The position numbers were made by a program, and so were the translations under genes. Of a stretch of DNA of 31,550 nt, positions 4,103 to 30,996 are shown one piece after another. The stretch's first letter is position 1; each line of letters begins with the position of its first letter. This DNA comes from a virus. Taxonomy: Duplodnaviria > Caudoviricetes. The notes under the pieces were generated by a model, which was not told where the DNA came from, searched no databases, and saw only the letters and a list, made by a program, of their open reading frames with translations. The stretch is from positions 1-31,550 of IMG/VR virus record IMGVR_UViG_3300014656_000090, one strand, 5' to 3'.

Positions 4103-4121
4103 TTTTAACCTGTTCTATACT
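4092..4121 (+). promoter_or_regulatory. Sigma70/SigA-type promoter upstream of the small RNA and the late operon
   Basis: TTGACA (4092-4097), 18 bp spacer, TATACT (4116-4121). Confidence 0.7.
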
Positions 4122-4127
4122 TGACAA

Positions 4128-4239: not shown

Positions 4240-4299
4240 AGTTATGGCAATACTATACTGGCACTGTAAAGGTAGCACTGTAGTTGATGATGATGGGCG

Positions 4300-4482
4300 G
4301 TGTATATTGTGCGGGAGGATTATACACGTAACTGTTATAAAATGCGGTGCCCGCAATGTGTCTACTACTACGTTTACATTGGCCAGCCCTACGAATGGGA
4401 AGCGTGCCCGATATGCGGCTACGGCGGCCCGTTCCAAGATTTTATCCTTGAGGTAACGAATGGAAACCAAAGTATTAGTTAA
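4300..4482 (+). CDS. Small zinc-ribbon protein (start uncertain; overlaps alternative ORF 4244-4456)
   Basis: CPQC...CPICG motif. The SD is weak and the overlapping frame also has Cys motifs. Confidence 0.45.
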   Translation: MYIVREDYTRNCYKMRCPQCVYYYVYIGQPYEWEACPICGYGGPFQDFILEVTNGNQSIS

Positions 4483-5656: not shown

Positions 5657-6204
5657 TGGCAGAACGTAATAAAGGTGGAACGCCGAAAGGCTTAACGCAC
5701 AGGCGGCGGGTGCTGGTGGGCCAGCTATGGTTGCGTGGTAACAGTGAACGGGCCATAGCCGAAATGGTGCGGGCGGAGGCCGTCCACCCTGGTAGCCCGT
5801 TGCGTGGTTGCGAGAAGACCACCCACATAACCGTGCACCTGGACGTGGAGGCCTGTAGGGAGGAGTGGGTTAAGCGTGATGGCTGCAAGCTGGACGAGAA
5901 GCGAACCGAACAGGTAAGCCGCTTGCTGGACATTGTGCACCAGGCGTGGGTTGATTTTACCAACAAGGCCGAGTATTTACGGCCACAGTATTTACGTATT
6001 GCTCTTGATGCCGAGGAAAAGCTGGCCAAGTTGATGGGCACACTGGCCCCTGTCCAGCTTACGGGTGGTGAAGGTGAACCGTTGATGCCGCCAACGGTGA
6101 TATTCCAGTGGCCCGATGGCACAGAGTTTAAGCCGCCACGTAATGGCCATGAACCGATAGAGGTTAAAGCCAGTGGTAATGGCGACGAGCCCGACAGAGG
6201 TTAA
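5656..6204 (+). CDS. Terminase small subunit
   Basis: Immediately upstream of and overlapping TerL. N-terminal HTH-like segment, helical middle and a QLTGGEGEPL tail motif typical of TerS. Confidence 0.75.
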   Translation: MAERNKGGTPKGLTHRRRVLVGQLWLRGNSERAIAEMVRAEAVHPGSPLRGCEKTTHITVHLDVEACREEWVKRDGCKLDEKRTEQVSRLLDIVHQAWVDFTNKAEYLRPQYLRIALDAEEKLAKLMGTLAPVQLTGGEGEPLMPPTVIFQWPDGTEFKPPRNGHEPIEVKASGNGDEPDRG

Positions 6205-7435: not shown

Positions 7436-7438
7436 ATT

Positions 7439-9343
7439 ATGGCACCTAATTTAACCAAATGGTTCAAAGGGCTTAACTTTAAGCTGGGTGGGGCGGCCAT
7501 ATCCGTTATGGATATACCGCCAAGCTGGAATTACCAGCAATACCTTAAAGCCTACGGTGATGTTGGGTGGTTGTTTGGGGCCAATAGCCTTATAAGCGAG
7601 GCTGTGGCCGATGTGAAATGGCATCTTTACGAGAAGGACGGCTCACAACTTGGCGACGAGGTGGACAACCACCCGTTGCTGGATATGTGGGCCTATGTTA
7701 ACCCGTTCCAAACCAAGTATCAGTTTATACAGCTAACGCAAATGTATTTGGGCCTGGTGGGTGAGGCATTTTGGGTGCTGAACTTTAACAAGCTGGGTGT
7801 GCCAGCCGAAATGTGGCTGGCCCCGCCGCAATACATGTATATCATACCCAGCCAGGAAACCTACATTAGCCATTACGAATACAGGCGTAATTTCGGGCGG
7901 TTGCGGTTAGAGGTTCCCGAAGTGATACATATAATGAGCCCTAACCCAGCTAACAGTTACCGTGGCCTGGGGCCCGCCCAAAGTATTAGCCTTGACCTGG
8001 ACAGTGAACGCTACGCCGCCCGCTACCAGCAACGGTTGTTCTACAATGATGCTACGCCAGGCATGATTATTGAATACCCCGATATACCCGAGAAGTCCGA
8101 GAGGGACAAGATACGCATGGAGTGGGACGAGATACACCGAGGCTGGCGTAACGCCCGCAAAACGGGCTTCCTGTGGGGCGGTGCCAAAGCCAACACCCTA
8201 GCCCTAACCAATAGGGACATGGAGTTTTGGCGGCTACGCAAAATTAACCGTGAAACTATTATAGGGGCCTACAGGCTACCCACCAGCATGATGGGCCTTG
8301 AGGGCCCAGGTAGCCGTGCCAGGGTGGAAGCTGACGAATACATATTTGCCAAATACACGGTTAAGCCCGCCCTAACCCGTATTAAGGAAGCGATTAACGA
8401 ACAGCTTGTGCCGCTGTTTGACGCCGGCTGGCAATTTAGCTTTGAAAACCCCGTGCCCGAAAACAGGGTGGAGATTGTTGACGAGGTTAGCAAGCTGGTG
8501 CCTGTGGGTATAATAACCAGGGAGGAGGCACGGGTTAAGCTGGGTTACGATGCCCAGGCGGCAAAAGGTGAAACCTACTTAACACCCATGACGCTTATGC
8601 CCGAAAAGGTGAAGCGTCATGAAAGCCTGGTTAACAGGCAGTTTAGCGAGGAACAAAAAGAGGTGCGGTGGCGGCTATATGCCAACAAGGCCGACCAGGA
8701 CGAGTTACAGTGCAAACGGCTGTTTAAGCGGCTGTGGTTTGAGCAGATGGACGAGGTTGCGGAAGCCTGGAAGCTGGTGCCACAACTTGACCAGGCTTTC
8801 AACGAGGAAGGTGCGAAGGTTACCTGGGACACCCACTTTAACCCTTTTATTGCCCACGTATTTGAGGAAGCCTACGACCTGGCTACTACAGGCGGGGCCT
8901 TAAGCCCCGTGCATACGGGCAAACAGGAGGGTGTGCTTGACCCGCAAGCCCTTGAGTGGATAGCATACCGTTCCTTAAACCTGGCCAAAATGGTTAACGG
9001 CACAACTTACGAGGAATTACGGGCGGCCCTTGCGATAGGCTTTGAGGAGGGCGAGAGCACCCAGCAACTAACCCGACGCATACGTGAGTATTACCAGGGC
9101 GGTTACGAAAGGCGGGCGACACTCGTAGCCCGCACGGAGGTTATTGCCGCCAGCAACGAGGGTGCTTTGCGGGGCTACGAAAGCGAAGGTTTGAACAAGG
9201 CCGAGTTCTATGCCGCCCTTGATGAACGCACGTGTGATGAGTGTATGGCTTACCACGGCGATGTGAGGCCCATAGACGAAGCACGTGGACTAATACCAGT
9301 GCACCCGCAATGCCGATGCACCTGGGTGCCCGTGATGGAATAA
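7439..9343 (+). CDS. HK97-family portal protein fused to a Mu gpF-like minor head domain
   Basis: Portal motifs (HPLLD, VGEAFW, EVIHI, GLGP, FYNDATPG, ITREEARVKLG) followed by MuF motifs RATLVARTEVIAASN...DERTCDEC...IPVHPQCRC. Confidence 0.92.
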   Translation: MAPNLTKWFKGLNFKLGGAAISVMDIPPSWNYQQYLKAYGDVGWLFGANSLISEAVADVKWHLYEKDGSQLGDEVDNHPLLDMWAYVNPFQTKYQFIQLTQMYLGLVGEAFWVLNFNKLGVPAEMWLAPPQYMYIIPSQETYISHYEYRRNFGRLRLEVPEVIHIMSPNPANSYRGLGPAQSISLDLDSERYAARYQQRLFYNDATPGMIIEYPDIPEKSERDKIRMEWDEIHRGWRNARKTGFLWGGAKANTLALTNRDMEFWRLRKINRETIIGAYRLPTSMMGLEGPGSRARVEADEYIFAKYTVKPALTRIKEAINEQLVPLFDAGWQFSFENPVPENRVEIVDEVSKLVPVGIITREEARVKLGYDAQAAKGETYLTPMTLMPEKVKRHESLVNRQFSEEQKEVRWRLYANKADQDELQCKRLFKRLWFEQMDEVAEAWKLVPQLDQAFNEEGAKVTWDTHFNPFIAHVFEEAYDLATTGGALSPVHTGKQEGVLDPQALEWIAYRSLNLAKMVNGTTYEELRAALAIGFEEGESTQQLTRRIREYYQGGYERRATLVARTEVIAASNEGALRGYESEGLNKAEFYAALDERTCDECMAYHGDVRPIDEARGLIPVHPQCRCTWVPVME

Positions 9344-9353
9344 GGAGGCTATT

Positions 9354-10973
9354 ATGCCAAACGAGACAGTTACGCAAGAGAAGACCATTTACAAAACTTT
9401 CCGTGCCGAGATAAAGGAGATTGATGCCCAGGCGGGCATAATCAACATGGTAATACCCATGAGCACGGGTGCGGAGGACAGGGACGAGGAGGTTATTGAG
9501 CCCGCCGCCTTTAAGAAGTGGCTCAAGGAGTTTATGAAGCGGCCTATACTACTGTCCAGCCACATGTATGGCGACCTCCGCAAACAGATAGGCGAGTTTA
9601 AGGGCCTTAAGGTAACCGACGAGGGGCTTATGGCCCAGGGGCTTGAATACTACATTGGCCGTGGCAACGACGAGGCCGATTGGGGCTTCTACCTGGCCAG
9701 CCGTGGTATGGCGGCTTTCAGTGTGGGCTTTATACCCAAGAAGTGGGAACCCATTGACGAGGAAAAAGACGAGGGCTTTTTCGGCGGCAACCGCCGCTAC
9801 ACCGAGGTGGAACTGTTAGAGGTTAGCCAGGTGGTGGTGCCCAGCAACCGTGAGGCGATACAGGGTATGCGTGGCAAGGCCCAGGGCGACCCTGTGGCCG
9901 TGGCTTTGCTGGACGAGGTGGACAAGGGCCTGGCCGATGGCACGGTTACCAAGCCCGAGGAAACGGAGGACTACATACGCATACCCGTTAAAGAGGAGGA
10001 GGGCAAGCACGACGACCACCGCATACGAACTATAACAGTTAGCGACGAGAAGGGTATTAAGGCCCTTTATTGCGGCGAGTGCAAGGTCATTGTTACTTAT
10101 CTGTTCAGTAAGGACGATGAATACGGCTGGACAATGGCCAGTGCCCAGGAGTGGGTTGATGACCACGCCAAAAGCTACGAACTGGTGGACGTTACCGCCG
10201 AGGGCGATACCGAACCACAGTTTGCGATACATGCCCTACTCCCTGGGCTGGCTGAAACTAAAGGGGCTATACCCTATAAAAAGACACCGCTAGACGAAAC
10301 AGGCGAGTGGGATGCTGGCAAAGAGATAAGGGCCGCCGAGGTTGACGACCTTAAAATAATGTGCACCTGGGTAGGCGATGACCCCGAGGTAAAGGGTAGT
10401 TATAAACTACCGCACCATAGGGCTGGCGGCGACCATACTTGCGTGTGGCGGGCCGTGGCGGCCTGTGCGGCTGTCTTAATGGGTGCCCGTGGCGGGGCCG
10501 ATATACCCGAGGGCGACGTTGCGGCGGTTAAGGCCCATATAGCCAAGCACTATGCTGACTTTGACAAGGGCGACCCGCCCTGGGCAAAAGCGGTTACACA
10601 GGAACAGTTACAGGACGAGATTGACTACGTGCATAAGGGCATTATGCACGTGGGCATGAATGAGGACACCGAGATTGTGGCCCTTGATATGGCCAGCGAA
10701 ATTATTATGCGGGCAACGGGTTCCGACATACCCGATGATATATTAACCAAAGTGGGTGCCGTGCTTAATGCCAAAAACAAGGACAGGCTGAACCAAATTA
10801 AGCGGTTGGCCCAGGAAGTTCTGGACAGTGCGGGCACCGACGAGGAGGACGGCAAAAAGGTAGAGCCAACACGGCCTAACCCCGCCGAACAGGCAAGACA
10901 GCGGGCTCAGGACGTGGCAGAGGTAGCCAGCCTGGTTGTTGCCCAACTCAAAGGCAAAAGAATACCGAAATAA
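9354..10973 (+). CDS. HK97-type prohead protease with long C-terminal extension
   Basis: DRDEEVI, PILLSSH, AFSVGF and ELLEVSQVVVPSNREA motifs, followed by about 350 aa of extra domains. Confidence 0.9.
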   Translation: MPNETVTQEKTIYKTFRAEIKEIDAQAGIINMVIPMSTGAEDRDEEVIEPAAFKKWLKEFMKRPILLSSHMYGDLRKQIGEFKGLKVTDEGLMAQGLEYYIGRGNDEADWGFYLASRGMAAFSVGFIPKKWEPIDEEKDEGFFGGNRRYTEVELLEVSQVVVPSNREAIQGMRGKAQGDPVAVALLDEVDKGLADGTVTKPEETEDYIRIPVKEEEGKHDDHRIRTITVSDEKGIKALYCGECKVIVTYLFSKDDEYGWTMASAQEWVDDHAKSYELVDVTAEGDTEPQFAIHALLPGLAETKGAIPYKKTPLDETGEWDAGKEIRAAEVDDLKIMCTWVGDDPEVKGSYKLPHHRAGGDHTCVWRAVAACAAVLMGARGGADIPEGDVAAVKAHIAKHYADFDKGDPPWAKAVTQEQLQDEIDYVHKGIMHVGMNEDTEIVALDMASEIIMRATGSDIPDDILTKVGAVLNAKNKDRLNQIKRLAQEVLDSAGTDEEDGKKVEPTRPNPAEQARQRAQDVAEVASLVVAQLKGKRIPK

Positions 10974-10987: not shown

Positions 10988-12244
10988 ATGCCATTAACAA
11001 AAGAGGAAAAACAGGAAATAGCGGAAACCGTGGCCGTGGCCCTTAAGGAAAGTGGGGCCCTGGACGCTACCCGCAAGTTTACCCCTGGTGACCCACCCGA
11101 GCACAGTGGGAAGGGCGACCCCGAAGTTGAGATTATTTCAAGCCCCGAGGACAGGATAATTCTTGACCCAAAGGGCACGTTTGAAGACTTCGGTGAGTTT
11201 GCCGCCGCTGTAGCGGGTAAAGGTGCCAAGTGGTATGGAACCCAACACCTGGATAAGCTAAAGGCTTATAACAATGCGGTAATCAAGACCACTGGCCACA
11301 TGGAGGAAGGCGACATGGCCCAGGGCGGTTACCTGGTGCCCGTGGAGTTTCGGGCCGAACTGCTACAAACCAAGCTGGAAATGACCGTCGTCGGCAACCG
11401 TGCAACCAGGATACCTATGCAGACGAACCGCATTACCATACCCGCTATCGTTGATAGCAACCACAGCACCAACTACTTTGGCGGGATTATACCTTACCGC
11501 ACGGGTGAAGCGGCACAGAAAACCGCCAGCAAACCAGCCCTGGGTCAAGTGGCCTTAACTCTCCACAAGCTAACGGGCCTGGTTTACATGACCGATGAAC
11601 TGCTGGAAGACAGCCCTATCTCCGTTGTGCCCGTCCTCAACACCCTTTTTGCCACGGCAATAGCGTTTGAGGAGGACGACGATTACCTGATGGGCACAGG
11701 TGTGGGCCGCCCGCTGGGTGCGTTCAACGCTGGTAACCCCAGCCTGATAGCCCAGGCGATTGAGGTGGGCCAGCCCGCCGCCACCATCGTGTGGCAGAAC
11801 ATAGCCAAAATGTGGAGTCGTTTACACCCGTCCAGCATGCGTAACGCCATTTGGGTAGCCAACAATGAGTGCTTCCCTCAACTGGCAACCATGTCTATGG
11901 CCGTGGGCACTGGCGGCGTTCCCGTATGGCTACCAGCCAATGGTGCGGCAAATACCCCATTCGGCACATTGATGGGCCGACCCCTTATGCTGTGCGAGAA
12001 GATGCAAGCCCTGGGGACACAGGGCGACATCGGCCTGGCAGACTTTAGCCAATACCTGGTAGCCGAGAAGGCGGGTGGAGGGCTAAAGACGGCCACCAGC
12101 ATACACCTCCGCTTTGACTACGACGAGACGTGCTTCCGCTGGGTGCTACGCTACGACGGGCAACCGTGGTGGTTAAGCGACCTGACCCCGAAACGGGGCA
12201 CGGCAACCTTGAGCCCGTTTGTAGTCCTGGCCGTCCGAGCATAA
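10988..12244 (+). CDS. Major capsid protein, HK97 fold
   Basis: GGYLVPVEF, ELLEDS, GTGVGRPLG, TLMGRP, DFSQY and FDYDETCFRWVLRYDGQP motifs, directly after the protease. Confidence 0.95.
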   Translation: MPLTKEEKQEIAETVAVALKESGALDATRKFTPGDPPEHSGKGDPEVEIISSPEDRIILDPKGTFEDFGEFAAAVAGKGAKWYGTQHLDKLKAYNNAVIKTTGHMEEGDMAQGGYLVPVEFRAELLQTKLEMTVVGNRATRIPMQTNRITIPAIVDSNHSTNYFGGIIPYRTGEAAQKTASKPALGQVALTLHKLTGLVYMTDELLEDSPISVVPVLNTLFATAIAFEEDDDYLMGTGVGRPLGAFNAGNPSLIAQAIEVGQPAATIVWQNIAKMWSRLHPSSMRNAIWVANNECFPQLATMSMAVGTGGVPVWLPANGAANTPFGTLMGRPLMLCEKMQALGTQGDIGLADFSQYLVAEKAGGGLKTATSIHLRFDYDETCFRWVLRYDGQPWWLSDLTPKRGTATLSPFVVLAVRA

Positions 12245-12295
12245 GCCGACCTGGGGCCCTACGTGCCCACAAAATAAAATAAGGGAGGCAGTAAA

Positions 12296-12790
12296 GTGCC
12301 ACACGCAAGATTTTCACAGACCCACGCCATCATCTACGAAACCATCATTGTGGCTGATAACTACAATGCTGGTATGAGTATGGACAGCATTAACATGGCC
12401 AAGTATGACCATGTAGCCCTAATCCTGGTGGGCGATGTTGCCTGTGCAGGTGCTGGCATTGTAACCATCATGGCGGGTGCCACCAACGGGGTTGAAACGG
12501 CGGCCATCACGTTCAGTTACCGATATACCCTCACTGACGTGGCTTCCACCACCTCTGACGTGCTGAGTGCCCCTGTGGCGGCGGCCACGTGCACCCTGAC
12601 CGAGGCATACATACGTAGCGGTATGTATGTTTTTGAATGGGACGCACAGGACATGCTGGTTGCTGGGGTTCACTACCAGTGGGCCACACCAGTGCTTGAT
12701 GCCAGCGGCACGGCGGGCATAGTAACGGCTATCGCCATCGGGCATTGGCCACGCTATGCACAGAACGTAATGCCGTCCGCCATCGTGTAG
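12296..12790 (+). CDS. Putative head decoration/cement protein
   Basis: GTG after a GGGAGG SD, follows the capsid gene, beta-rich (DSINMAKYDHV...PRY). Confidence 0.7.
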   Translation: MPHARFSQTHAIIYETIIVADNYNAGMSMDSINMAKYDHVALILVGDVACAGAGIVTIMAGATNGVETAAITFSYRYTLTDVASTTSDVLSAPVAAATCTLTEAYIRSGMYVFEWDAQDMLVAGVHYQWATPVLDASGTAGIVTAIAIGHWPRYAQNVMPSAIV

Positions 12791-12797
12791 GTGAGGC

Positions 12798-12950
12798 ATG
12801 GTTAAGGAAGGTAGCGACAAAAAGAAAACCAAGCGGCGGGTTAGGGTGGTGGATAGTGATGCTGTCCACAGGGCCCTGGCCCGCCCAGGGCGGGACAAGA
12901 TGGTTAAGGGCCCGCCCACTTTCAAATCGCCTGACCGTAGCGGAACGTAA
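12798..12950 (+). CDS. Small basic head-region protein, 50 aa
   Basis: Not in the ORF track. ATG follows GGTGAGG. Reads MVKEGSDKKKTKRR...ALARPGRDKMVKGPPTFK, a basic P..DKMVK-type peptide of the kind seen after capsid genes. Confidence 0.55.
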   Translation: MVKEGSDKKKTKRRVRVVDSDAVHRALARPGRDKMVKGPPTFKSPDRSGT

Positions 12951-12994
12951 GACCGCACGGAGTATTTACTAAATAAAGCAAGGAGGCAAAAACA

Positions 12995-13477
12995 ATGGCG
13001 AACTTTGACGAGGGGAAAGCCCTACGAAAACTCCTGATGGGCATTAAGGTAGAACGGGCCGCCCAGGCAATAGCCATTACGGCTACCCCTGGGCTTCCGA
13101 TGTTTACCATAGCTGGCGGGCTTGTCCTGGTGACAGGCTTGCTAGGCGTATGCACCACAACCCACGGCGGTGTGGCTAATACCATGTCGTTTGAGTTGAA
13201 CCCAACGGCGGCCACTGGTGCCAATAGTGCCATTACGGCTACAACCGACCTGGGCACCGCTTCTGTAGTCGGTGATGTGGCGGTGGTAGTCGGTGCACCC
13301 GCAACTGGCCCGCTGGGTGGGCACGTTGAGGTAAACGTGCTGGGTTCCACCAGCGGCAAGGGTATCGTAATGAACAATGGCGTTATCGGCCTGGTGGCCA
13401 CGGCGGCCAACGGTGCGTGGCGGTGGATACTGTTCTATGTGCCGATTGACGACGGTGCCTTTATCGTTACGGCCTAA
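12995..13477 (+). CDS. Putative virion decoration protein (paralog of 14269-14721)
   Basis: AAGGAGG SD. Ala/Gly/Thr-rich beta protein sharing FTIA.G..LVT...G and GA.RW...Y motifs with 14269-14721. Confidence 0.75.
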   Translation: MANFDEGKALRKLLMGIKVERAAQAIAITATPGLPMFTIAGGLVLVTGLLGVCTTTHGGVANTMSFELNPTAATGANSAITATTDLGTASVVGDVAVVVGAPATGPLGGHVEVNVLGSTSGKGIVMNNGVIGLVATAANGAWRWILFYVPIDDGAFIVTA

Positions 13478-13558
13478 ACATGGATAACTTTTGCTAAAGG
13501 GTGGGCGGGGCCGTTCAAGCGGAGTAACCCCGCCCGCCCACACATTGGAGGTGGCCAC

Positions 13559-14164
13559 ATGGATATTAACAGTAAGAACATAGCTTTACACGTAGACGAT
13601 GATAACGTTGCCCTGTTTGACCGAAGCAAGGACAAAACGGGTGCGGGCCTTATTGCCTGGTTCAAAAGACATAAGGTTCAATTCGGAGGGAGTGACGCTA
13701 CGGTAGATGTGGATTTAGACGTAGTTGGCCCCAACGGTTCAATTAAGTATGATGCGGGCGAGGGCTTTTTAAGATTAACCACGTTGCCCTTAATTTTAAG
13801 CGGCCTGTCGTTCCCGTTAACAACGGTAACGGCCAAGACCTCCGCCGCTGGCTATACCCTGACCGCCGCTGAGGTGGTGGGCGGGTATGTGATTGATGCC
13901 ACCAACACAGGGGCTATCGCACCTGTTATGCCAACGGTGGCGGCTGTGGTGGCCCTCATACCAGGCTGGGTGGCGGGCACGTCTTTCTTGTTTACCTACG
14001 TTAACACGGGAAACCAAACAGTTACGCTTACCACCGATGCCAGCACGCAATGGACAATGACGGGAACCATGACAGCATTGACCACAACAACCAGAATATA
14101 CCTGTGCCGTATATTAACCGCCGCCACGGGCGTGGTTTACGGTATCGGCACGTTTGCTAATTAA
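13559..14164 (+). CDS. Putative head fibre/decoration protein
   Basis: GGAGGT SD. Thr/Ala-rich C-terminal domain (TLTAAEVVGG...MPTVAAVVA...GTSF), located in the head module. Confidence 0.7.
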   Translation: MDINSKNIALHVDDDNVALFDRSKDKTGAGLIAWFKRHKVQFGGSDATVDVDLDVVGPNGSIKYDAGEGFLRLTTLPLILSGLSFPLTTVTAKTSAAGYTLTAAEVVGGYVIDATNTGAIAPVMPTVAAVVALIPGWVAGTSFLFTYVNTGNQTVTLTTDASTQWTMTGTMTALTTTTRIYLCRILTAATGVVYGIGTFAN

Positions 14165-14166
14165 GT

Positions 14167-14236
14167 GTAATGCTCGTCCGTAAGGGCGGGGCGTTACCTC
14201 CTTAAGGTGGGCGGTTCCATGACGGGGTCGCCCACC
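14167..14236 (+). ncRNA. Structured intergenic RNA element with exposed anti-SD (hairpin, CCTCCTTA, hairpin)
   Basis: GTAA-tetraloop hairpin about 14168-14196, ACCTCCTTA 14196-14204, and hairpin GGTGGGCG...CGCCCACC 14206-14236. Confidence 0.45.
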
Positions 14237-14268
14237 ACAGGAAATACCATACCCCACAGGAGGCTACA

Positions 14269-14721
14269 ATGACAGTAATGCACGCTAAAGGCTTTGAGGA
14301 AACTCTGGAAAAAACGGACGGAACCGTGCCCAACGGCGACGACAACCTGTTTACTATTGCCAACGGGCCCATTCTCGTTACGCATTTCTATGGGCTTGTA
14401 AGCACTGTAATAGGGGCGAACGTTTGCACTTGCACGATACAGCATGCTTGCACCGCCCCCGCCGCCGATATAGCATTATCTACGGCGGTGGCGATTGAAA
14501 ATGATGCCGTTGGGACTACCTATTACATAAGCAATGCGGCCCTGGGTGTATTCACTCCCATAACGGCTGGTTCCGTTATTATTCCCGCTTTAATGTTGCC
14601 GTGGTTGCTTACACCAGGCACATTACAGGCCACCTTTAGTGCCGCCAATACTGGTGCTATTAGGTGGTTCATCGTTTATAAGATGCTCTCACAGCACAGT
14701 AGGGTGGAGGCGGCGGCATAA
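14269..14721 (+). CDS. Putative virion decoration protein (paralog of 12995-13477)
   Basis: CAGGAGG SD. Shares motifs with 12995-13477. Confidence 0.75.
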   Translation: MTVMHAKGFEETLEKTDGTVPNGDDNLFTIANGPILVTHFYGLVSTVIGANVCTCTIQHACTAPAADIALSTAVAIENDAVGTTYYISNAALGVFTPITAGSVIIPALMLPWLLTPGTLQATFSAANTGAIRWFIVYKMLSQHSRVEAAA

Positions 14722-19517: not shown

Positions 19518-20807
19518 ATGGCAAATGAGTTCAAACATGCCAGCGTAGGCACAGAATTAGCTCAGGCAGAATGGGAAAGCACAACTGGTCATGTCTTTGA
19601 CAGCCAGGCCACGGGCGACCTATTATATGCCAGCTCTGCCGCACAGCTGAGTAGGCTGGCTGCTGGCACACAAGGCTATCCGTTAGTTATGGGGGCCTCG
19701 GTGCCGCAATGGGGTGGAGCGATAACACTCAACGGAACTGTAACCCTCAATGGCCAGACGTTCTCGGGAACAGCTAAGTTTAGTGCTGGTATCAATACTT
19801 TCGGCGCTACACCATTAGGTTACATTGGAAACCACTTTTATAGCACTTTTACCTCAGATGGTGGGGCTAACTTAGTTGCTGGCAGTGCTTTTAGCGGGGC
19901 GATAGCAGGAGCCAGCGGTGATATCGCTTCTATAGTTGGAGTTAGAATAGCTCATTCGCTCTACACGCAGACTGCCGCTGAGTCAATAGCTTATGTCGCC
20001 CAACTTGGTCTTGTTGAACCAGCGATTACAAATAATCTTACTGGCGGGGGAGTAATAACTGTTGCCGCCACTCTCTATGTAGTTAGTGCTCCAACCGAAG
20101 GTGCTACAAACGCCGCTATTTACGTAGCCAGTGGTGATACGAATATAAGCACACTAACCACACGTGGGGCTACTACTCTCGGCGGCACGGTCAATATCAA
20201 CGGGCAACAGTTTAATGCTGGTGCAGGTGAAGTTATAATTAACACTACTGGTTCAGCGGCAGGGTTACAACTATGGTCAACCTGTGATGGTCAAGAAGGA
20301 GCATTGTTTAGAGGCTATCACAATTCAACTAGTCCAGCAGTTGACGATATTCCTTTACTGATATGGTCTTATGGTAAAAACAGTGTGGCGGGATGGATAG
20401 CATATTCTAAAATACATACAGTTTGCACTAATGTTACTAGCACAACCGAAGCCGCAAAATTGGAGTTTAGACTCATGGACGCTGGTGCTGAAAACTTGGC
20501 TATGTGGCTTTCTGGTGCTGGTGGGCTTTCAGTTGATGCCGACATAGGCACGGCTGACGACCCTGTGGCCCTGTTTGATAGCATACCAGCCAAATACGGC
20601 ATAGATGATGCCCAATTCCTGGCCAAATATGCTATTGGCAATATGATGCCAGCCCTTTGTGATATAGGCGTAATGAGCCGAAAAGACACTGGTTCGGGCT
20701 ATATGCTTAGTATGCAAAAAGCCCATTACCTTAGTTGGGGTGCTATTAAGGCACTCTACGAGAGAATTGAACAGTTGGAAGCTGAATTAGCTTTAAGGAG
20801 GAACTAA
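19518..20807 (+). CDS. Tail fibre / receptor-binding protein
   Basis: GDLLYASSAAQLSRLAAG fibre motif, Gly/Ala/Thr-rich beta repeats, and a C-terminal AIKALYERIEQLE coiled coil resembling the end of an intramolecular chaperone. Confidence 0.75.
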   Translation: MANEFKHASVGTELAQAEWESTTGHVFDSQATGDLLYASSAAQLSRLAAGTQGYPLVMGASVPQWGGAITLNGTVTLNGQTFSGTAKFSAGINTFGATPLGYIGNHFYSTFTSDGGANLVAGSAFSGAIAGASGDIASIVGVRIAHSLYTQTAAESIAYVAQLGLVEPAITNNLTGGGVITVAATLYVVSAPTEGATNAAIYVASGDTNISTLTTRGATTLGGTVNINGQQFNAGAGEVIINTTGSAAGLQLWSTCDGQEGALFRGYHNSTSPAVDDIPLLIWSYGKNSVAGWIAYSKIHTVCTNVTSTTEAAKLEFRLMDAGAENLAMWLSGAGGLSVDADIGTADDPVALFDSIPAKYGIDDAQFLAKYAIGNMMPALCDIGVMSRKDTGSGYMLSMQKAHYLSWGAIKALYERIEQLEAELALRRN

Positions 20808-21079: not shown

Positions 21080-21107
21080 GTGGGCCAAGTAAGTAGGAGG
21101 TAACACA

Positions 21108-23607: not shown

Positions 23608-23619
23608 CGGAGGTGTTTT

Positions 23620-24101: not shown

Positions 24102-24142
24102 ACCGTTACCAGCGGGCCTGTAGTGGCAAAATAGGGGCATTG

Positions 24143-24187
24143 AGTGGGGCAAGAGGTAGGAGTTTACCTCTTGCCCCACTTTTTTTT
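24143..24187 (+). terminator. Strong Rho-independent terminator ending the late operon
   Basis: AGTGGGGCAAGAGGTA / TACCTCTTGCCCCACT 16-bp stem followed by a T run. Confidence 0.92.
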
Positions 24188-24256
24188 GTTTGTAGGCGTG
24201 GCCTAACGCTGTATTAAGTATTTTGCTGATTTGGCAAAAATAGTTGGTAGAGGGGC

Positions 24257-24285
24257 TTGACAAATGGCAAATAAAGGTATAGAGT
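24257..24285 (+). promoter_or_regulatory. Main early promoter
   Basis: TTGACA (24257-24262), 17 bp spacer, TAGAGT (24280-24285). AT-rich upstream with the inverted repeat TTTTGC-N7-GCAAAA. Confidence 0.75.
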
Positions 24286-24648
24286 TAGAACGGTTACGGA
24301 ACAGGAGGGAACAAAAAGAAACGAAGCCGCACAGACGGGTAGCCACCACAAAGGAAGGCTACCAAGTACCTAACCCCACCGTTGTAGATAACAGGCAATG
24401 CCCAGGGTAAACACCAAGCCGCATGACCAAGCTGGACGGCACGGCAAGCGGCCCCAGGAACCAGGGGAAGGCACTACGGGGTATTAAGCGGGGCACAGAA
24501 TGGGTGCACTGTGAGCAGAGTTTATTAGCCGATTACCCGCCCGCAACTGTTAACACGCTATAAACCTTTACGGGGCCAGCGTGGGTGAAATGCTACGGTT
24601 ACGGGCGGACATGGGCCAATAAGCCCAAATATAGTAAGGAGGGAACCG

Positions 24649-25002
24649 ATGGCCGCACAACAAGCCGAAAGGCATGAGTTAGGCCGCAACGGCGAGGACG
24701 TTGCCAAGAATATGCTGGGTGGCCGCACCACCAAGCACAAGGCACCATTTGACCTGGTGGACTTTAGCGAGGGCTACGCTTACGAAGTTAAGACCATGAC
24801 GGGCTGGGGCAAGGATAACAAGATACACATTACCGATGCCAGCATGGCCCGCAAGCTGGCCTGGGCCAAAAGATACGAGCTTAAAATGGTGCTGGTGGCC
24901 GTAGTGATTTACGGCCCCGACCACGTGGAAGTTTACCAAAGCGAACTGAAACAGAGCATGAGGGTTAGGCAAATGGCCCTTGTGGAAAGGAGGGAAGCGT
25001 GA
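24649..25002 (+). CDS. PD-(D/E)XK-family (YraN-like) nuclease-fold protein
   Basis: ELGRNGEDVA...PFDLV...YEVKT motif. Strong SD. Confidence 0.7.
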   Translation: MAAQQAERHELGRNGEDVAKNMLGGRTTKHKAPFDLVDFSEGYAYEVKTMTGWGKDNKIHITDASMARKLAWAKRYELKMVLVAVVIYGPDHVEVYQSELKQSMRVRQMALVERREA

Positions 25003-25217
25003 AGCTAATAGCAAAGTTTAACGAAAAGTGGATGATGGTTGATACGGAAACAAAAACCTGGGAATGGGTGGAACGGGCCACGCCTGATATTGAAGAAAAG
25101 ATACTGCACGATTGCACGATTACAGGCTTGCTGACCCAAAAAACGAACAAAGACGATACCATAATAGCCGAGAACATGCGGGATTACTGGAAGCACCAGG
25201 CCGCTGGTGCGGATTAA
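24999..25217 (+). CDS. Hypothetical protein
   Basis: GTGA overlap, AAAGGAGGGAA SD. Confidence 0.75.
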   Translation: MKLIAKFNEKWMMVDTETKTWEWVERATPDIEEKILHDCTITGLLTQKTNKDDTIIAENMRDYWKHQAAGAD

Positions 25218-25300
25218 CCCGCCAACCACCAGCCCGTAACTGTTATGGTTGCGGGCTGACGTGGGCTGGTTAGCCCAAATGATATTTAAGGAGGGAGTTT

Positions 25301-25486
25301 ATGCCGAGAACAACAAGCGGGCGGTGCCACAATTGCAATATACGCTATGTGTGGCCAGGGCGGAAACCGCTATTGCGTGATGCAAGATGCCCTGAATGTG
25401 GTGGCCGCCTACGACAGACGGTGCATTATTTTAAAAGTGGGCCAACGAAAGGGGTGGCCCCGCACCAAATGATGGGGGAGGTGTAA
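25301..25486 (+). CDS. Small zinc-ribbon protein
   Basis: CHNC...CPECGG motif. Strong SD. Confidence 0.75.
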   Translation: MPRTTSGRCHNCNIRYVWPGRKPLLRDARCPECGGRLRQTVHYFKSGPTKGVAPHQMMGEV

Positions 25487-25487
25487 T

Positions 25488-25952
25488 ATGCCGAGAGGAA
25501 TGTTGAGGGATAGGCTAGGACGGTTTAATGGCACGCCCTATGACCCCGTGCAACGGTTCTGGCAACTGGTTAAAAAGACTAATGGTTGCTGGCTGTGGGA
25601 AGGTCATATAGGCAAGAACGGCTACGGTTACTTTGCCGTGGGCCACCAAGTGCCAGTATTGGCACACCGCTACAGCTATGAATTAGCACACGGGAAGATA
25701 CCCGATGAACTTGAAATAGACCACTTGTGCCGCACCCGCCACTGTGTGAACCCCCAGCATTTGGAAACAGTTACACATGCTGAAAACTTGGGACGGGGCA
25801 ATATGTTTGATATTGGAAGCCTTAACCGATACAAAACACATTGCCCAAAGGGCCATGAATACAATGAAACCAATGCCTACTATTACAAGTATGGAAGGCA
25901 ATGCCGCCTCTGTAAGCGGCAAGAACAAATAGAGAGAAGGAGGAAACTTTAA
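25488..25952 (+). CDS. HNH endonuclease (homing-type)
   Basis: CWLWEG...GYG...AHRYSYE...DHLCRTRHCVNPQHLETVTHAEN, plus a KTHCPKGH...CRLC zinc finger. Confidence 0.92.
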   Translation: MPRGMLRDRLGRFNGTPYDPVQRFWQLVKKTNGCWLWEGHIGKNGYGYFAVGHQVPVLAHRYSYELAHGKIPDELEIDHLCRTRHCVNPQHLETVTHAENLGRGNMFDIGSLNRYKTHCPKGHEYNETNAYYYKYGRQCRLCKRQEQIERRRKL

Positions 25953-25953
25953 T

Positions 25954-26979
25954 ATGCCAGCCGAATTGGAAAGTATGTTCTACTACGGAGAGACACCCTG
26001 GCACGGCCAGGGCACACCAGTTACACACGCCTTAACCGCCGCCGAGGCCATTGTAGCGGCGGCCCTGGATTGGGAAGTAAAGCCCATGCCCATATACGTT
26101 AACAACCTGAACGGACACAAGGGCTTTACCAAGATACCTGACCGCAACGCTATTGCCCGACAGACGGACGGCAAGGTGATGGCGGTGCTGGGCGACGGTT
26201 ACACGCCCGTGCAAAACCTGGAAGCCTTTACCTTTTTTGATGATGTGGTGGCCAGCAAAGATGCCAAATACCACACGGCGGGTAGCCTTTTGGGTGGCCG
26301 CTGGGTATGGTTACTGGCCAAGCTGAACGGCGGTAACGGAACCATAAGCATTAAGGGTGATGCCGTGGACAAATACCTGTTACTGATGAACGGCCACGAT
26401 GGAACCCTGGCGTTTAAGATGTTTTTTACGCCCATACGGGTGGTATGCTACAACACCTTGACCGCCGCCGATGCCGAGGCAAAGGCCGCCATGCGTAAGG
26501 GCCAGCGGGCCGAAATGTTTTACGCAAGGCACAGCGAAACCATTAAGGGCCGTATTGAACAGGCCCGCAACGTGCTGGGCATAAGCCTGAAATACTATGA
26601 GGACTTTGCCGAACAGGCACGGCACCTGGCTGGTTTACAGCTACCCGCCGCCCAGCTACCCAAGTTATTAGCCGCCGCCTTTGGCACCACAGGGGCCATT
26701 AAGCCCCAGGACGTAACCAGCCTTGACGACTTTACGGCCCGTAGCCGTGAACGGGTGGAGGTGGTTACCAGGCTGTTTGAGGGCGAGGGCAAGGGCCTTA
26801 ATGAGCCTGGCATTAAGGGCACCAAATGGGCCGCCTACAATGCGGTGGTGGAATACGTGGACTATTGCAAAAAGTATGGCGGAACCGACCCCAACGACGT
26901 GCGGTTAAAGAACGCCCTGTTTGGTGGCGGGGCCCGCATTAAGCAACGGGCCTGGGACTACCTACAGAAAGGAAAATAG
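25954..26979 (+). CDS. DUF932 family phage/plasmid protein
   Basis: ETPWHGQG...LDWEV...YTPVQNLEAFTFFD...TAGSLLGGRWVWLLAKL...HDGT...TPIRVVCYNTL...GTKWAAYNAVVEYVD. Confidence 0.92.
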   Translation: MPAELESMFYYGETPWHGQGTPVTHALTAAEAIVAAALDWEVKPMPIYVNNLNGHKGFTKIPDRNAIARQTDGKVMAVLGDGYTPVQNLEAFTFFDDVVASKDAKYHTAGSLLGGRWVWLLAKLNGGNGTISIKGDAVDKYLLLMNGHDGTLAFKMFFTPIRVVCYNTLTAADAEAKAAMRKGQRAEMFYARHSETIKGRIEQARNVLGISLKYYEDFAEQARHLAGLQLPAAQLPKLLAAAFGTTGAIKPQDVTSLDDFTARSRERVEVVTRLFEGEGKGLNEPGIKGTKWAAYNAVVEYVDYCKKYGGTDPNDVRLKNALFGGGARIKQRAWDYLQKGK

Positions 26980-26989
26980 GAGGTTAACC

Positions 26990-27625
26990 ATGTTACATAC
27001 GACATTTAGATTGGGCAGAGAAAAAGGTGCGTGTATTAGCAGTTATAGAAAAATGGCAAAAGCCGTTGGCGGAATAACTAAATATGGCACTAATACACCC
27101 CTAGCCCTTGAGGAAGTAGTTAAAGTATGCGGACTAGCAGATGCTATTTGGTGCTTACGGTGCACTTGTGAGCCAAGCCAGGAATTTTTAATTGAATTTG
27201 CTTGCCGATGTGCAGAACATGTTTTGCATTACTACGAACGCCAATACCCAAACGACAAGAGGCCCAAACAGGCAATAGAAAAGGCACGGCAATGTTTTAC
27301 CGATAAAACCGCCAGTGCCGACAGTGCCGACAGTGCCGCCTGGGCCGCCAGTGCCGCCAGTGCCGCCTGGGCCGCCAGTGCCGCCAGGGCCGCCAGTGCC
27401 GACAGTGCCGCCAGTGCTGCCAGTGCCGCCTGGGCCGCCTGGGCCGCCAGGGCCGCCAGTGCCGACAGTGCCGCCTGGGCCGCCAGTGCCGCCAGGACCG
27501 CCAGTGCCGCCGCCAGTGCCGCCGCCAGTGCCGCCAGTGCTGCCAGTGCCGCCGCCAGTGCCGCCGAAATTAAATGGCAAACAGAAACATTTATAGAAAT
27601 GCTAAAAAATTGGGGGCCGAAATAG
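26990..27625 (+). CDS. Imm5-like protein with an Ala/Ser/Trp tandem-repeat tract, 211 aa
   Basis: AGGAGGT SD before ATG 26990. FACRCAEHVLHYYERQYPNDKRPKQAIEKAR motif, then (AAS/AAW/ADS/AAR)n. Confidence 0.8.
   Translation: MLHTTFRLGREKGACISSYRKMAKAVGGITKYGTNTPLALEEVVKVCGLADAIWCLRCTCEPSQEFLIEFACRCAEHVLHYYERQYPNDKRPKQAIEKARQCFTDKTASADSADSAAWAASAASAAWAASAARAASADSAASAASAAWAAWAARAASADSAAWAASAARTASAAASAAASAASAASAAASAAEIKWQTETFIEMLKNWGPK
27311..27566 (+). repeat. Coding tandem repeat of 9-bp units (GCCGCCAGT and variants)
   Basis: About 255 bp built from GCCGCCAGT, GCCGCCTGG, GCCGACAGT and GCCGCCAGG, with a few 12-bp units. Confidence 0.95.
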
Positions 27626-27771
27626 TGGAATGCCAGGATTGCCCGTTTTACGACAGGGAGGTTTACAGGTGCAACCACCCCGAGGCCGAGGGTAACCCCA
27701 CCCGCATGATGCCCGACGACGAGTGCCATTACGACTACGAGGCCGAGGACGTGGAGGACGACCTGGATTAG
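27625..27771 (+). CDS. Small Cys-rich acidic protein, 48 aa
   Basis: TAGTG overlap. MECQDCPFY...CNHP...CHYDY followed by an acidic tail. Confidence 0.65.
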   Translation: MECQDCPFYDREVYRCNHPEAEGNPTRMMPDDECHYDYEAEDVEDDLD

Positions 27772-27776
27772 CCTGC

Positions 27777-27820
27777 AAGCTACCCCGCATGGGTGTAATG
27801 CCTGTGCGGGGTAGCTTTTT
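27777..27820 (+). terminator. Rho-independent terminator
   Basis: AAGCTACCCCGCATGGGT / GCCTGTGCGGGGTAGCTT stem followed by Ts. Confidence 0.88.
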
Positions 27821-27851
27821 GCGTCTTGGCATATAACGGTTACAGAACAGC

Positions 27852-27880: not shown

Positions 27881-27899
27881 TGGAAAGGAGGTGATGCTT

Positions 27900-28136: not shown

Positions 28137-28614
28137 TTACAGCAAAACAGCCATTAACCTTACTAACCCCGCCGAGGTGCGGAACCTATTGCTGGAATAC
28201 AACAAGGCCCGCAAGATGGAGACCATACACCAAGCCGCCCTGGAAGCCACCGCCGAGTTTAAGGTGCTGGCCCAGGCCCAGGCCGATGTGGGCAAGCTGT
28301 ATGACAAGCTACAGGAAGCCATTGACCTGGCGGGAAGCTACCAGGATATTGCCGAGGGCCTTTACGGCCTTAAGCAAAGCCGCACCAGCGTAACCTTTGA
28401 CCCCAAAGCGGTGCGTAAGGTTATACCACAGTTTGCCGAGGCCGTGATAATGGAAACTGTGGACGGCACGAAGGTCAACGGCCTTAAGAAAGGCGGCCTC
28501 ATTACAGAGGCACAGGTAGCCAAGATAGAGGTGCGGGCGGCCTTAAGCCCCGCCTACATTATTGGCATAGCGGAACAGCCCGTAAAGGGCAAGGAGGGAA
28601 CCAATGCCGATTAA
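28117..28614 (+). CDS. Hypothetical coiled-coil protein of the recombination module
   Basis: 165-aa ORF with AGGAGGGAAC SD. Helical N-terminal half. Confidence 0.75.
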   Translation: MPRYGTDYSKTAINLTNPAEVRNLLLEYNKARKMETIHQAALEATAEFKVLAQAQADVGKLYDKLQEAIDLAGSYQDIAEGLYGLKQSRTSVTFDPKAVRKVIPQFAEAVIMETVDGTKVNGLKKGGLITEAQVAKIEVRAALSPAYIIGIAEQPVKGKEGTNAD

Positions 28615-29881
28615 AGGTTTAACCGACAGGCCGCCCAGGTTGCCCCGTGTGGGCAAGATACACCTGGGCGTAAAGGTAAAGCAAGAGGGCAAGGCTGAAT
28701 ACCCCAGGGCTACGGACTACTTTGTGTTTGACCCCGCCCACCCGCAATACGAGGAGTTGGTGGCCACCTATGGCGAACAGCCAAAGGAACTACGCATACT
28801 GCTACCCATTGAGGACGAAGCCAAGTTTGCCCAGCAATACTACAGGCTATACAGTATGACCAGGGGCCTGGTTTGCAAGGGCGACGGTGAAACCGCCTTG
28901 CGTATGGTGGACACTAAGACGGGCGACGTGGCTAACCGTAATACCAAAGACGTGGCCATGCGGCCCGTAACATGTGCTGGCCGTGAGTGCCCCGACTACG
29001 GGCCCCGCAAGTGCGGCGAGGTGATGAACCTACAGTTTTTGTTGCCCGAGGTAAGCGGCTTTGGGGTGTGGCAGATTGACACGGGGAGTATTAACAGCAT
29101 TATAAACGTGAACAGTGCCCTGGAACTGGTGCGGGGCGTTTACGGGCGGGTTAGCATGGTGCCATTGATATTGGCCCTGGAACCGATGGAGGTGGTTAAC
29201 CCCGACGACGGCAAAAAGAAAACCGTGCGGGTGCTTAATATACGAAGCCAGGACAAGATGATAGAGGCATACCACAAGGCCCAAATGCCGCCGCTACAGC
29301 TTGTGGCCAGCATGGGTGAAACTGGCGAGATAGGGCCTATTGAAGCCGAACAGTTACCGCCCGTGGGCGACGAACCTATACACACGGATTTGCCCGTGGT
29401 AGAGGAAAGCCCTGGCACCGACAGTAACCCGTGGCCCGATGCCCCGCCTGGCCAGGAGACAAACGCCGATGGGGTTATTGAGGGCATACTGTGGATTGAC
29501 CGCAAGGCCCCGTTACCCGTGGGTAAGCCTGGCATGCGTGTGGGCATTAACGGCACCAATGACGTGCTACGCTGGGAACAGGCCGATGGTGATGGCGTTG
29601 ACGGCAAGGGTGGCCGCTGGGTAAAGGAAATGCCCGAAGCTGAAAAGCCGCCCGTGGTTAAACAAGCGGAGAAGGAAGCGGCGGAACGTGAGGACAAAGC
29701 CATTGGTGAGCCGTGGACTGGCATGACCTTTGCCGATTTGCTAGAATGGGCGAAGGCCCACCGCAAGGACAAGAAGGGCACCGAGGGCTGGTTGTTTAAG
29801 ACCTTTGGCTTTAACATTGAGAAGGCCAAAGCTAACCCCTACGAGTGTGCCCTGGAAGTAAAGCAATTAACGGGCTGGTAG
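28604..29881 (+). CDS. Gp3-like / recombination-directionality-factor-like phage recombination protein
   Basis: MPIKGLTDRPPRLPRVGKIHLG...YPRATDYF...CKGDGE...C...C...LQFLLPEV...GVWQIDTGSINSIIN matches this family by recognition. Acidic, Pro-rich C-terminal half. Confidence 0.75.
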   Translation: MPIKGLTDRPPRLPRVGKIHLGVKVKQEGKAEYPRATDYFVFDPAHPQYEELVATYGEQPKELRILLPIEDEAKFAQQYYRLYSMTRGLVCKGDGETALRMVDTKTGDVANRNTKDVAMRPVTCAGRECPDYGPRKCGEVMNLQFLLPEVSGFGVWQIDTGSINSIINVNSALELVRGVYGRVSMVPLILALEPMEVVNPDDGKKKTVRVLNIRSQDKMIEAYHKAQMPPLQLVASMGETGEIGPIEAEQLPPVGDEPIHTDLPVVEESPGTDSNPWPDAPPGQETNADGVIEGILWIDRKAPLPVGKPGMRVGINGTNDVLRWEQADGDGVDGKGGRWVKEMPEAEKPPVVKQAEKEAAEREDKAIGEPWTGMTFADLLEWAKAHRKDKKGTEGWLFKTFGFNIEKAKANPYECALEVKQLTGW

Positions 29882-29905
29882 CCCGTTAAGTAAGGAGGTG
29901 CCAAT

Positions 29906-30184
29906 ATGGCAGTAAAGGACAGGGCCCAAATAGGGCTAGAGGACACCTGGGTGCGTGATGCGGAATTGGAGGAATTGCTTGAGGACAGGGAGGTGAAAAA
30001 GGAACGGCTGGCCGAATACCGTGAGGCCGATAAAAAGGCCAGGGACAAAATAGCCGCCCTGGAACAGCCGATGCCATACCGTTGCGGGCGTTTTGTTATA
30101 AACAAGACGGTGCTGGGCCCCAGGGCGGTGGAGTTTGAAACCGAGGGCGGGGAACGGTTAAGCATTAAACTGGCCGAGAAGTAG
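29906..30184 (+). CDS. Hypothetical protein
   Basis: TAAGGAGGT SD, charged 92-aa ORF. Confidence 0.8.
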   Translation: MAVKDRAQIGLEDTWVRDAELEELLEDREVKKERLAEYREADKKARDKIAALEQPMPYRCGRFVINKTVLGPRAVEFETEGGERLSIKLAEK

Positions 30185-30255
30185 GCCCTGTGGGCGGTGG
30201 TGCTACGGTGCCACCGCCCGACCATTTGGTAACTGTTATAAGAAAGGAGGGCAAC

Positions 30256-30996
30256 TTGGCCAGGCCGCAAATAGAAAATGGCCATACCGATATAGCCAAC
30301 GAACTGACCGAAGCATTTGCCAGGTGCTATTTAACGGCCAGTGAGAGCCGTGTGCTATGGGCAATAATACGCAAGACCTATGGCTGGCATAAAAAGTATG
30401 ACCGCATTTCCTTTACCCAATTTGAACAGCTAACTGGCATGAACCGCCGCCATGTTGCCGATGCCCTCAAGAGTTTAATGGGTCGTTCTATTGTTACCCG
30501 TAGAGGCAACAATTACAAGCTGGAATATGGCGTGCAAAAGGACTATGAGAAGTGGGTATTGTTACCCGTAGGGGTAATGAATAGGCTTAAAAACTTGTTA
30601 CCCGTAGAGGCAACAAACACAATCGTTACCCAACAAGGCAATACCCCGTTACCCGTAGAGGCAACAAAATCGTTACCCGTAGAGGCAAACACAAAAGAAA
30701 AGAAAACAACTATACAAAAGAAAATAGTAGAAGGTCGCAAAATAGCGGGTTACATGTTTGAATTGCCCTGGCTGAATAAACTGGTAGCTGAATATGCCGA
30801 CCTTAACTTTGAAGCCGAGGTTACTAAGTTTGAGGATTACCAGGCTGATACAAGGCGTAAATTAAAAAGCCCGAAGCTGGCTTTACGCAACTGGCTTAAC
30901 ATAGCCCGTGAACGGGCGGCCAAAGCACCCGCCGCAAGTAGAGGTGCCAGGCCGCTACCCGATACCAAAACATTAAAGGAGGAATGGGAACAATGA
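30256..30996 (+). CDS. Replication initiator, lambda O-like N-terminal domain
   Basis: TTG after AAAGGAGGG. PQIENGHTDIANEL...VLWAIIRKTYGWHKKYDRISFTQF...GVQKDYEKW, with internal iterons, and followed by the DnaC-like gene. Confidence 0.9.
   Translation: MARPQIENGHTDIANELTEAFARCYLTASESRVLWAIIRKTYGWHKKYDRISFTQFEQLTGMNRRHVADALKSLMGRSIVTRRGNNYKLEYGVQKDYEKWVLLPVGVMNRLKNLLPVEATNTIVTQQGNTPLPVEATKSLPVEANTKEKKTTIQKKIVEGRKIAGYMFELPWLNKLVAEYADLNFEAEVTKFEDYQADTRRKLKSPKLALRNWLNIARERAAKAPAASRGARPLPDTKTLKEEWEQ
30493..30727. promoter_or_regulatory. Replication origin: iterons plus A-rich tract within the initiator gene
   Basis: GTTACCCGTAGAGGCAA at 30493, 30597, 30648 and 30672, with variants at 30561 and 30625, followed by an A-rich stretch at about 30690-30727, as in lambdoid origins. 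Confidence 0.85.

Follow-up and report, generated by a model that had tools for sequence, protein, structure and literature searches.

Here, we provide evidence that the phage genome in IMG/VR record IMGVR_UViG_3300014656_000090 (Duplodnaviria; Caudoviricetes) has been purged of the dinucleotide TC on its plus strand, most completely in its early genes, and that this purge results from selection. The window, i.e., the whole analysed stretch of 31,550 nucleotides, represents a complete, circularly closed phage genome of 31.4 kb because a 123-bp repeat is common to both of its ends. All 49 scanned proteins are encoded on the plus strand. HK97-like packaging, capsid and tail genes are followed by an early region encoding a DUF932 protein, a helix-turn-helix protein, a Gp3-like protein, an O-like initiator and a DnaC-like loader, as assigned by PHROGs and Pfam scans. 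No integrase family was found among the 49 proteins in these scans, which left about half of the proteins without any family. The early arc comprises the following features.

28501..30408, plus strand: longest TC-free run; it spans the Gp3-like gene (28604-29881) as well as gene 29906-30184 and reaches into the beginning of the O-like replication gene
25981..27823, plus strand: second TC-free run, with the DUF932 gene, an Ala-repeat/Imm5-like gene and a small Cys gene
24170..25557, plus strand: further TC-free run, with the predicted early promoter, the leader and the first early genes
1..511, plus strand: TC-free run that extends the early arc over the 123-bp terminal repeat
24142..24191, plus strand: predicted terminator of the late genes, whose stem has the sole TC (24169) of the non-coding stretch 24102-24648
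24257..24285, plus strand: predicted sigma-70-type early promoter, TTGACA-17-TAGAGT, by consensus match only
24649..25002, plus strand: first early gene, predicted PD-(D/E)XK nuclease fold (Hjc-like) with invariant D35/E46/K48; 0 TC
25954..26979, plus strand: DUF932/TIGR03299 gene, found together with TC depletion within this phage family, though not sufficient for it elsewhere

An earlier note on this DNA had reported no plus-strand TC in three of these runs, and counting confirmed it: 28501-30408, 25981-27823 and 1-511 contain none, where local base composition predicts 79.8, 92.0 and 21.7, the earlier estimate of about 100 for the longest run having been slightly high. The run 24170-25557 (56.2 expected) had been overlooked. 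Genome-wide, 397 TC remain (observed/expected ratio, O/E, 0.26), and the early arc 24102-3700 holds 40 versus 513 expected. With the proteins held fixed, there are 35 TC in early genes versus 411 expected and 197 in late genes versus 661. Codon junctions avoid TC as the earlier note had observed, with 12 versus 118.7 expected under codon shuffling in early genes and 68 versus 254.6 in late genes. The non-coding stretch 24102-24648 has 1 TC versus 22 expected. Genome-wide, Ser is encoded by 98 TCN and 299 AGY codons and Ile by 274 ATA, 205 ATT and 50 ATC codons, and the previously noted restriction to AGY, ATA/ATT and TTT holds fully in gene 28604-29881 (Ser 10/10 AGY, Ile 20/20 ATA/ATT, Phe 9/9 TTT).

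Synonymous-codon fits with 19 restriction-like motifs, whose quoted errors assume independent codons, gave TC penalties of -3.6 in 24649-31550 and -2.2 in 351-3697; in the late regions, fits of the same type gave -2.5 for packaging, -1.0 for head and -1.9 for tail genes. In 24649-31550, the penalty applied to all frames (TCN -3.9, NTC -3.6, junction TC -3.2), as compared with -0.9 for NGA and -1.2 for junction GA. In TC-normal relatives, the fitted values were -0.04 for TC and +0.02 for GA. Beyond the dinucleotide, the longer context around TC shows no motif; TTC is tolerated best, and each of the 16 four-base (NTCN) contexts has few junction TC (0.00-0.38). Depletion in the late genes varies as follows.

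5656..10973, plus strand: packaging genes with strong TC depletion; fitted penalty TC -2.5, GA -1.4
10988..14721, plus strand: capsid and head accessory genes with the weakest depletion; fit TC -1.0, GA -1.0
3779..5656, plus strand: HNH, small and ParB-methyltransferase genes, richer in TC by per-gene counts; presumably recent imports
19518..20807, plus strand: tail-region gene where TC reaches its genome-wide maximum (0.70-0.77 in 500-bp windows); presumably a recent import

A pooled fit of the genes at 3779, 4460 and 19518 gave TC -0.67 and GA -0.69. The head genes were probably exchanged recently with a TC-normal phage, because two of them are 77% and 84% identical to the TC-normal relative L153. 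TC also returns within the O-like gene (n = 7 in 30409-30735), and the presumed origin region is therefore not the cleanest DNA. Several TTACCC-containing repeats within this gene (30530-30680) are probably origin iterons.

GA, i.e., TC on the minus strand, had been described as staying common. This is true of raw counts, much of which is dictated by Asp/Glu codons, but freely placed GA is depleted. Junction GA was 0.61 in early and 0.66 in late genes, and freely placed GA 0.62, versus 0.97 ± 0.08 in 81 TC-normal related loci that still include near-duplicates. The non-coding stretch 24102-24648 contains 28 GA versus 48 expected. With the 19 motifs fitted, GA penalties ranged from -1.0 to -1.5 across five regions, and in the early fit GA reached -1.1 versus -3.6 for TC. 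Junction TC and GA covary across 88 loci (rho 0.42, p 6e-5), and TC and GA also covary across the regions of the relative G001. The bias is thus strongly asymmetric yet not purely one-stranded: a weaker, uniform minus-strand component lies beneath a stronger, region-dependent sense-strand component. Depletion of GA equal to that of TC, which the earlier note would have taken as a sign of a symmetric cause at the DNA level, was not found, since GA is less depleted than TC, yet it is partly depleted.

The loss of TC is due to selection, and not to C-to-T mutation or host codon usage, because the depletion is frame-independent, TC is replaced by CC, GC or AC, and Ser is recoded from TCN to AGY. 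The fates of orthologous sites were pooled over five TC-richer comparators, which are not independent. Among 163 junction TC, 94 correspond to CC, 23 to GC, 15 to AC and 6 to TT, and 11 were kept; among 190 Ser TCN codons, 58 correspond to AGY and 6 to Phe/Leu, and 16 were kept. From the original suggestion of selection or mutation acting on mRNA or on one DNA strand, selection and the link to a strand therefore stand, while mutation and a purely one-stranded action do not. Codon-specific toxins or tRNA cutting would also fit poorly with the frame independence and with the clean leader.

The host is probably a member of the Dehalococcoidia, because homologues of the Gp3-like protein sit in genome records so titled (7 of 9 genome loci are in records titled Dehalococcoidia, Dehalococcoidales or Chloroflexota). 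A TC-context deaminase had been named as a possible agent, DddA being an enzyme that prefers TC. We nevertheless consider it most improbable that neutral C-to-T mutation at TC, by an APOBEC-like deaminase or ultraviolet (UV) light, or matching of host codon usage produced the pattern. Changes from TTC to TTT (53 orthologous sites) and from ATC to ATT (21) do occur, but ATC to ATA (31) exceeds the latter. All frames are depleted alike, whereas an APOBEC3 footprint hits NTC and spares TCN and junction TC (PMC7449416). The tests for such a footprint failed, as TCN and junction TC are as depleted as NTC and just 6 of 163 junction TC turned into TT. UV is unlikely because the sequencing runs that best hold the phage are labelled groundwater metagenome. 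As to codon usage, mild TC depletion does occur in some host fragments (junction TC down to 0.53), but the mean of 41 host fragments (7 of 48, of <1000 codons, being left out) was 0.80 ± 0.14 versus 0.23 in the phage, and TCN made up 0.48-0.69 of Ser codons in all 48 fragments versus 0.24 in the phage. The fit in host fragments gave -0.26 for both TC and GA. With this host background and the protein-fixed null, an explanation by amino-acid content or host codon usage fails. In the candidate host fragments L281-L284, L301, L310 and L317, TC and GA show a mild, symmetric depletion (junction 0.57-0.77), and GATC is purged.

Duplicate loci were removed by hand before related loci, G002 segments and DUF932 loci were counted. 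TC O/E was <0.6 in 8 of 88 de-duplicated related loci, window included, and in portal and terminase trees TC-poor phages fall among TC-normal ones, with moderate support. The relative G002 (48% identity in the Gp3-like protein) shows where the bias starts. The 740-bp gap upstream of its predicted early promoter has a TC/GA O/E of 0.71/0.63; the leader has 0.15/1.05, the first genes have 0.23/1.01, later early genes 0.62/1.02 and late genes 0.85/0.86. The sense-strand component in G002 sets in at the early promoter and weakens farther along, and this sharp onset ties the TC ban to transcription.

The phage has also lost many restriction-like sites. The purge is nearly complete on both strands for CCGG (observed/expected 3/207), GCGC (1/107), GTAC (1/104) and CGCG (0/74), and further affects TCGA (1/23), GATC (4/23) and GGACC (1/33) as well as the non-palindromic CTGC (19/132), GCAG (56/163) and GAGC (51/132). 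Purged CCGG, CGCG, GCGC, TCGA and GATC are common to the window, G001 and L150, which suggests that these three share a host type. In L117, palindromes are purged and TC is normal; palindrome purge and TC ban are therefore separable traits. Mild coding-strand TC depletion (0.59-0.71) was observed in the unrelated low-GC DUF932 phage loci L186, L249, L195 and L230, and in L186 and L249 it holds for open reading frames on both strands.

The TC ban likely marks selection by a host defence that reads TC on single-stranded nucleic acid exposed in transcription. We tentatively favour, at less than even confidence, an enzyme of the host that targets TC in the DNA of the displaced non-template strand. 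Such an enzyme would attack bare 5'-TC-3' in single-stranded DNA (ssDNA), mainly where transcription displaces the non-template strand, and might do so by nicking, ADP-ribosylation or lethal deamination. The burden would be greatest on early genes, since their transcription draws on the single incoming genome, and the weaker GA mirror would stem from ssDNA exposed at replication. The agent would accordingly be host-encoded, DNA-acting and in need of no more than the dinucleotide. A DNA target is preferred because one motif explains both components and their covariation across the 88 loci. Non-palindromic restriction-like motifs are about strand-symmetric (early CTGC -2.1, GCAG -2.3), unlike TC and GA, which supports this proposal. 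Several points weigh against it. Surviving TCs are unpaired as often as controls (0.406 vs 0.398, p 0.99, 192 sites), and in predicted RNA structure no sparing of TC in stems was seen in the window, G001 or the control L153; this helps neither an ssDNA nor an RNA single-strand reader. The G002 early region lacks a GA mirror (GA 1.0), which suits an RNA target equally, and junction GA falls to 0.64 in some host fragments, so that the mirror may partly be host baseline. None of the TC-poor relatives was found to carry an inverted module. No enzyme of this kind was found, and no spacer match fixes the host. The ssDNA enzymes compared do not fit, as DarT2 depends on TNT and DarT1 lacks a consensus (PMC12170906, PMC11543638). 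We see an even chance for the broader proposal that some hosts of these groundwater phages, probably Dehalococcoidia, carry an undescribed antiviral enzyme reading bare TC or UC on transcription-exposed single strands, and that phages escape it through a rewritten sense strand, starting with the genes expressed earliest.

An RNA target is possible, though somewhat unlikely: a host ribosome-independent RNase or RNA-modifying enzyme would read UC in transcripts, and the GA dip would be separate and milder, owing to host baseline or a CmdT-like GA reader. We rank this a close second because the G002 early region has no mirror. The sharp onset at the G002 promoter without one and a leader as clean as coding DNA speak for it, as does a dinucleotide-specific precedent, CmdT, which modifies GA in single-stranded RNA (PMC11618068). 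However, it requires a second cause for the GA loss, which covaries with TC across relatives and G001 regions; paired UC is not spared; and frame independence together with the non-coding ban excludes codon-specific, ribosome-dependent or tRNA-cutting versions. A CmdT-type enzyme reading GA in the message could cover the GA part alone (free GA 0.62, TC far lower). It is unlikely that an enzyme instead marks GA in double-stranded DNA (dsDNA) on both strands, at highest cost on the template strand (plus-strand TC), where it would stall RNA polymerase. A single motif would then cover both a uniform two-strand penalty near -1 and a transcription-linked extra, and DpdA of phage CAjan, which marks GA and GGC, is a precedent (PMC7544227). 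Yet GCC (template-strand GGC) is about 2-fold enriched, the G002 early region shows no GA mirror, and the 49 scanned proteins include no DpdA or other base-modification gene bar one N6/N4 methyltransferase, nor any family of a thymidine hypermodification or DpdA pathway (PHROGs, Pfam), although a remote enzyme could have escaped among the roughly half of the proteins that lack a family. We likewise give little credence to a phage-encoded early protein, the nuclease 24649-25002 or DUF932, that attacks or reads TC or UC while the phage spares itself. A nuclease homologue also heads the G002 early operon (TC 0.13), and DUF932 occurs in 4/4 TC-poor versus 0/42 TC-richer Gp3-like loci with enough flank, at a cut-off chosen after seeing the data. 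But the nuclease was not found in G001, a TC-poor contig with terminal repeat (TC 0.47), its 45% homologue in L333 has 16 TC (O/E 0.90), and its fold is nearest to Holliday-junction resolvases. Of the four DUF932 carriers, three belong to a single clade; TC is normal in the sister DUF932 loci L177, L256 and L261; and TC O/E was <0.64 in 0/80 distant viral DUF932 loci.

Avoidance of the transcription terminator Rho, which binds 5'-YC (PMC6144790), on the sense strand is quite unlikely, even though the pattern is sense-strand and promoter-proximal, Rho avoidance shapes coding strands (PMC13323073) and Rho lies above the family cut-off in 140/151 genomes of the class of genome G003 (given the inferred host assignment). 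CC is enriched (1.28-1.38) and is the main replacement for TC, which excludes YC readers; the phage has 8.9 YC per 100 nt and a purine content of 0.551, as compared with 8.3-11.2 and 0.535-0.562 in TC-normal relatives; Rho is near universal, whereas the trait occurs in 8/88 loci; and Rho does not predict GA loss. It is very unlikely that the ban is a by-product of dsDNA defence by many restriction enzymes, by orientation-dependent type III or ISP enzymes or through a CRISPR protospacer-adjacent motif (PAM). Phage T7 escapes type III enzymes through sites in one orientation. Purged restriction-like sites such as CCGG (3/207) and GCGC (1/107) and the depletion of PAMs in some phages (PMC4246573) favour such an origin, but it does not predict a promoter onset, junction TC is low in every four-base context, and GA-TC spacings other than GATC, TCGA and GANTC do not clearly stand out. 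In addition, the TC penalty was the same with the 19 motifs fitted in an earlier pseudo-likelihood fit, the errors of which were unusable owing to collinear dinucleotide terms (later fits used fewer terms). For fixed sites, this origin is largely refuted. Avoidance of DarT2 targets (TNT/TNTC), proposed in the earlier note, is not supported: DarT2 depends on thymine both at position 1 and at position 3 (PMC12170906), but T at position -2 of surviving TC is not avoided (0.25 vs a genome T of 0.21), and TAT, TGT and TTT occur about as often as expected or more often (1.02-1.73, protein-fixed null). DarT is present in 7/151 genomes of the order of G003. The co-transcriptional ssDNase Cas10 (type III CRISPR) found little support as the agent: host presence was weak, with weak, below-cut-off TIGR02577 matches in 2/251 genomes, and no dinucleotide preference of the Cas10 DNase was found in the available part of PMC7214462 or by literature search.

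The early nuclease, singled out in the earlier note, was thus rejected as the cause on its distribution, being neither necessary (not found in TC-poor G001) nor sufficient (TC-normal in L333). Its predicted structure is closest to the Holliday-junction resolvase Hjc (Z 10.8, rmsd 2.4, 98 residues aligned), which points to a DNA-nuclease fold. After Hjc resolvases, the nearest folds include the restriction enzymes NhoI (Z 9.0) and Eco15I (Z 7.6), methylation-dependent cutters of GCWGC/GCNGC; the phage avoids GCWGC. The nuclease may conceivably act against methylated host DNA. No match to the nuclease was found in annotated phages or in 401 genomes. DUF932 was rejected as a sufficient cause because sister DUF932 loci are TC-normal and distant viral ones are not strongly depleted. 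Its model (pLDDT 91; invariant W16, R69, N88, H148, R162, C165, N167, H193 and N296) had no Foldseek match in the PDB and no solved relative, and the Atlas search returned DUF3871 look-alikes only; DUF932 may be an enzyme whose fold is new.

Inspection by eye showed a hairpin-like element, closed by a Shine-Dalgarno sequence, at 24530-24640 and 25218-25300 and, in G001, just before the homologue of gene 24999; it is reminiscent of RNase III processing sites. The leader 24290-24648 resembles that of G001, and Rfam gave 0 matches. The Imm5-like gene contains an Ala/Ser-rich low-complexity repeat (27300-27570; Ser 22/22 AGY), which draws many spurious DNA matches. The sequencing runs with most of the phage DNA are labelled groundwater metagenome, and one is labelled metagenome only; 9 of 19 may stem from the source sample, and X10 and X11 represent additional studies. 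Contigs from an RNA library span most of 11551-31550 and are uninformative on strand or transcription, and variants listed from reads stem largely from contigs of other organisms. Searches for CRISPR spacers, with two candidates per genome scored, yielded prophage-like or repeat matches and none that were spacer-like, both for 12001-31550 against 301 genomes and for 1-12000 against 251 genomes.

When a virus avoids a motif, this is usually a clue to the enzyme at work. Here, a two-base motif is purged almost wholly, in all frames, with sense polarity and anchored at a promoter, and the known readers of TC, YC and TNT do not match on the features that define them. If a host enzyme does underlie the ban, it would be an uncharacterised defence whose substrate is already known and which is hence findable; if the enzyme is indeed novel, the phage genome would be a read-out of its specificity and of the restriction repertoire of the host. 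The genome also offers a fingerprint of the probable methylation sites of the host (CCGG, GCGC, GTAC, CGCG, GCWGC, GGWCC and others) that could serve to find it. No published description of sense-strand TC avoidance in phages was found in open-licence PMC and bioRxiv. The case contributes a whole-genome example without detected modification genes, with replacement of TC by CC, a split into two components and a promoter-anchored onset in the relative G002.

Phage genomes avoid restriction sites, and the TC ban works like such avoidance, or like an APOBEC3 footprint, but is a member of neither. As in restriction-site or PAM avoidance (PMC4246573), a host-read motif is lost through synonymous recoding; those motifs, however, span 3-8 bp and are lost about strand-symmetrically, whereas here 2 bp are avoided, up to about threefold more strongly on the sense strand and starting at a promoter. 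The APOBEC3 footprint in human viruses involves the same dinucleotide, depletion of a host-enzyme target and unequally affected strands, but it is confined to NTC/NNGANN and runs from C to T (PMC7449416), while in this phage of a bacterial host TCN, NTC and junction TC are lost alike, mostly to CC. DarT2 resembles the proposed agent in being anti-phage and acting on ssDNA, including non-template promoter DNA (PMC12170906, PMC11543638), but differs in its need for T at positions 1 and 3, as TNT is not avoided here. CmdT is likewise a dinucleotide-specific anti-phage enzyme acting on single-stranded nucleic acid (PMC11618068); its target is GA in mRNA, whereas the strong ban in this phage concerns UC or TC in message sense. 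Finally, Rho avoidance by coding-strand purine bias is also a transcription-tied constraint on the sense strand (PMC13323073, PMC6144790), but it predicts loss of C and CC and an excess of purines, whereas this phage is enriched in CC and favours codons ending in C.

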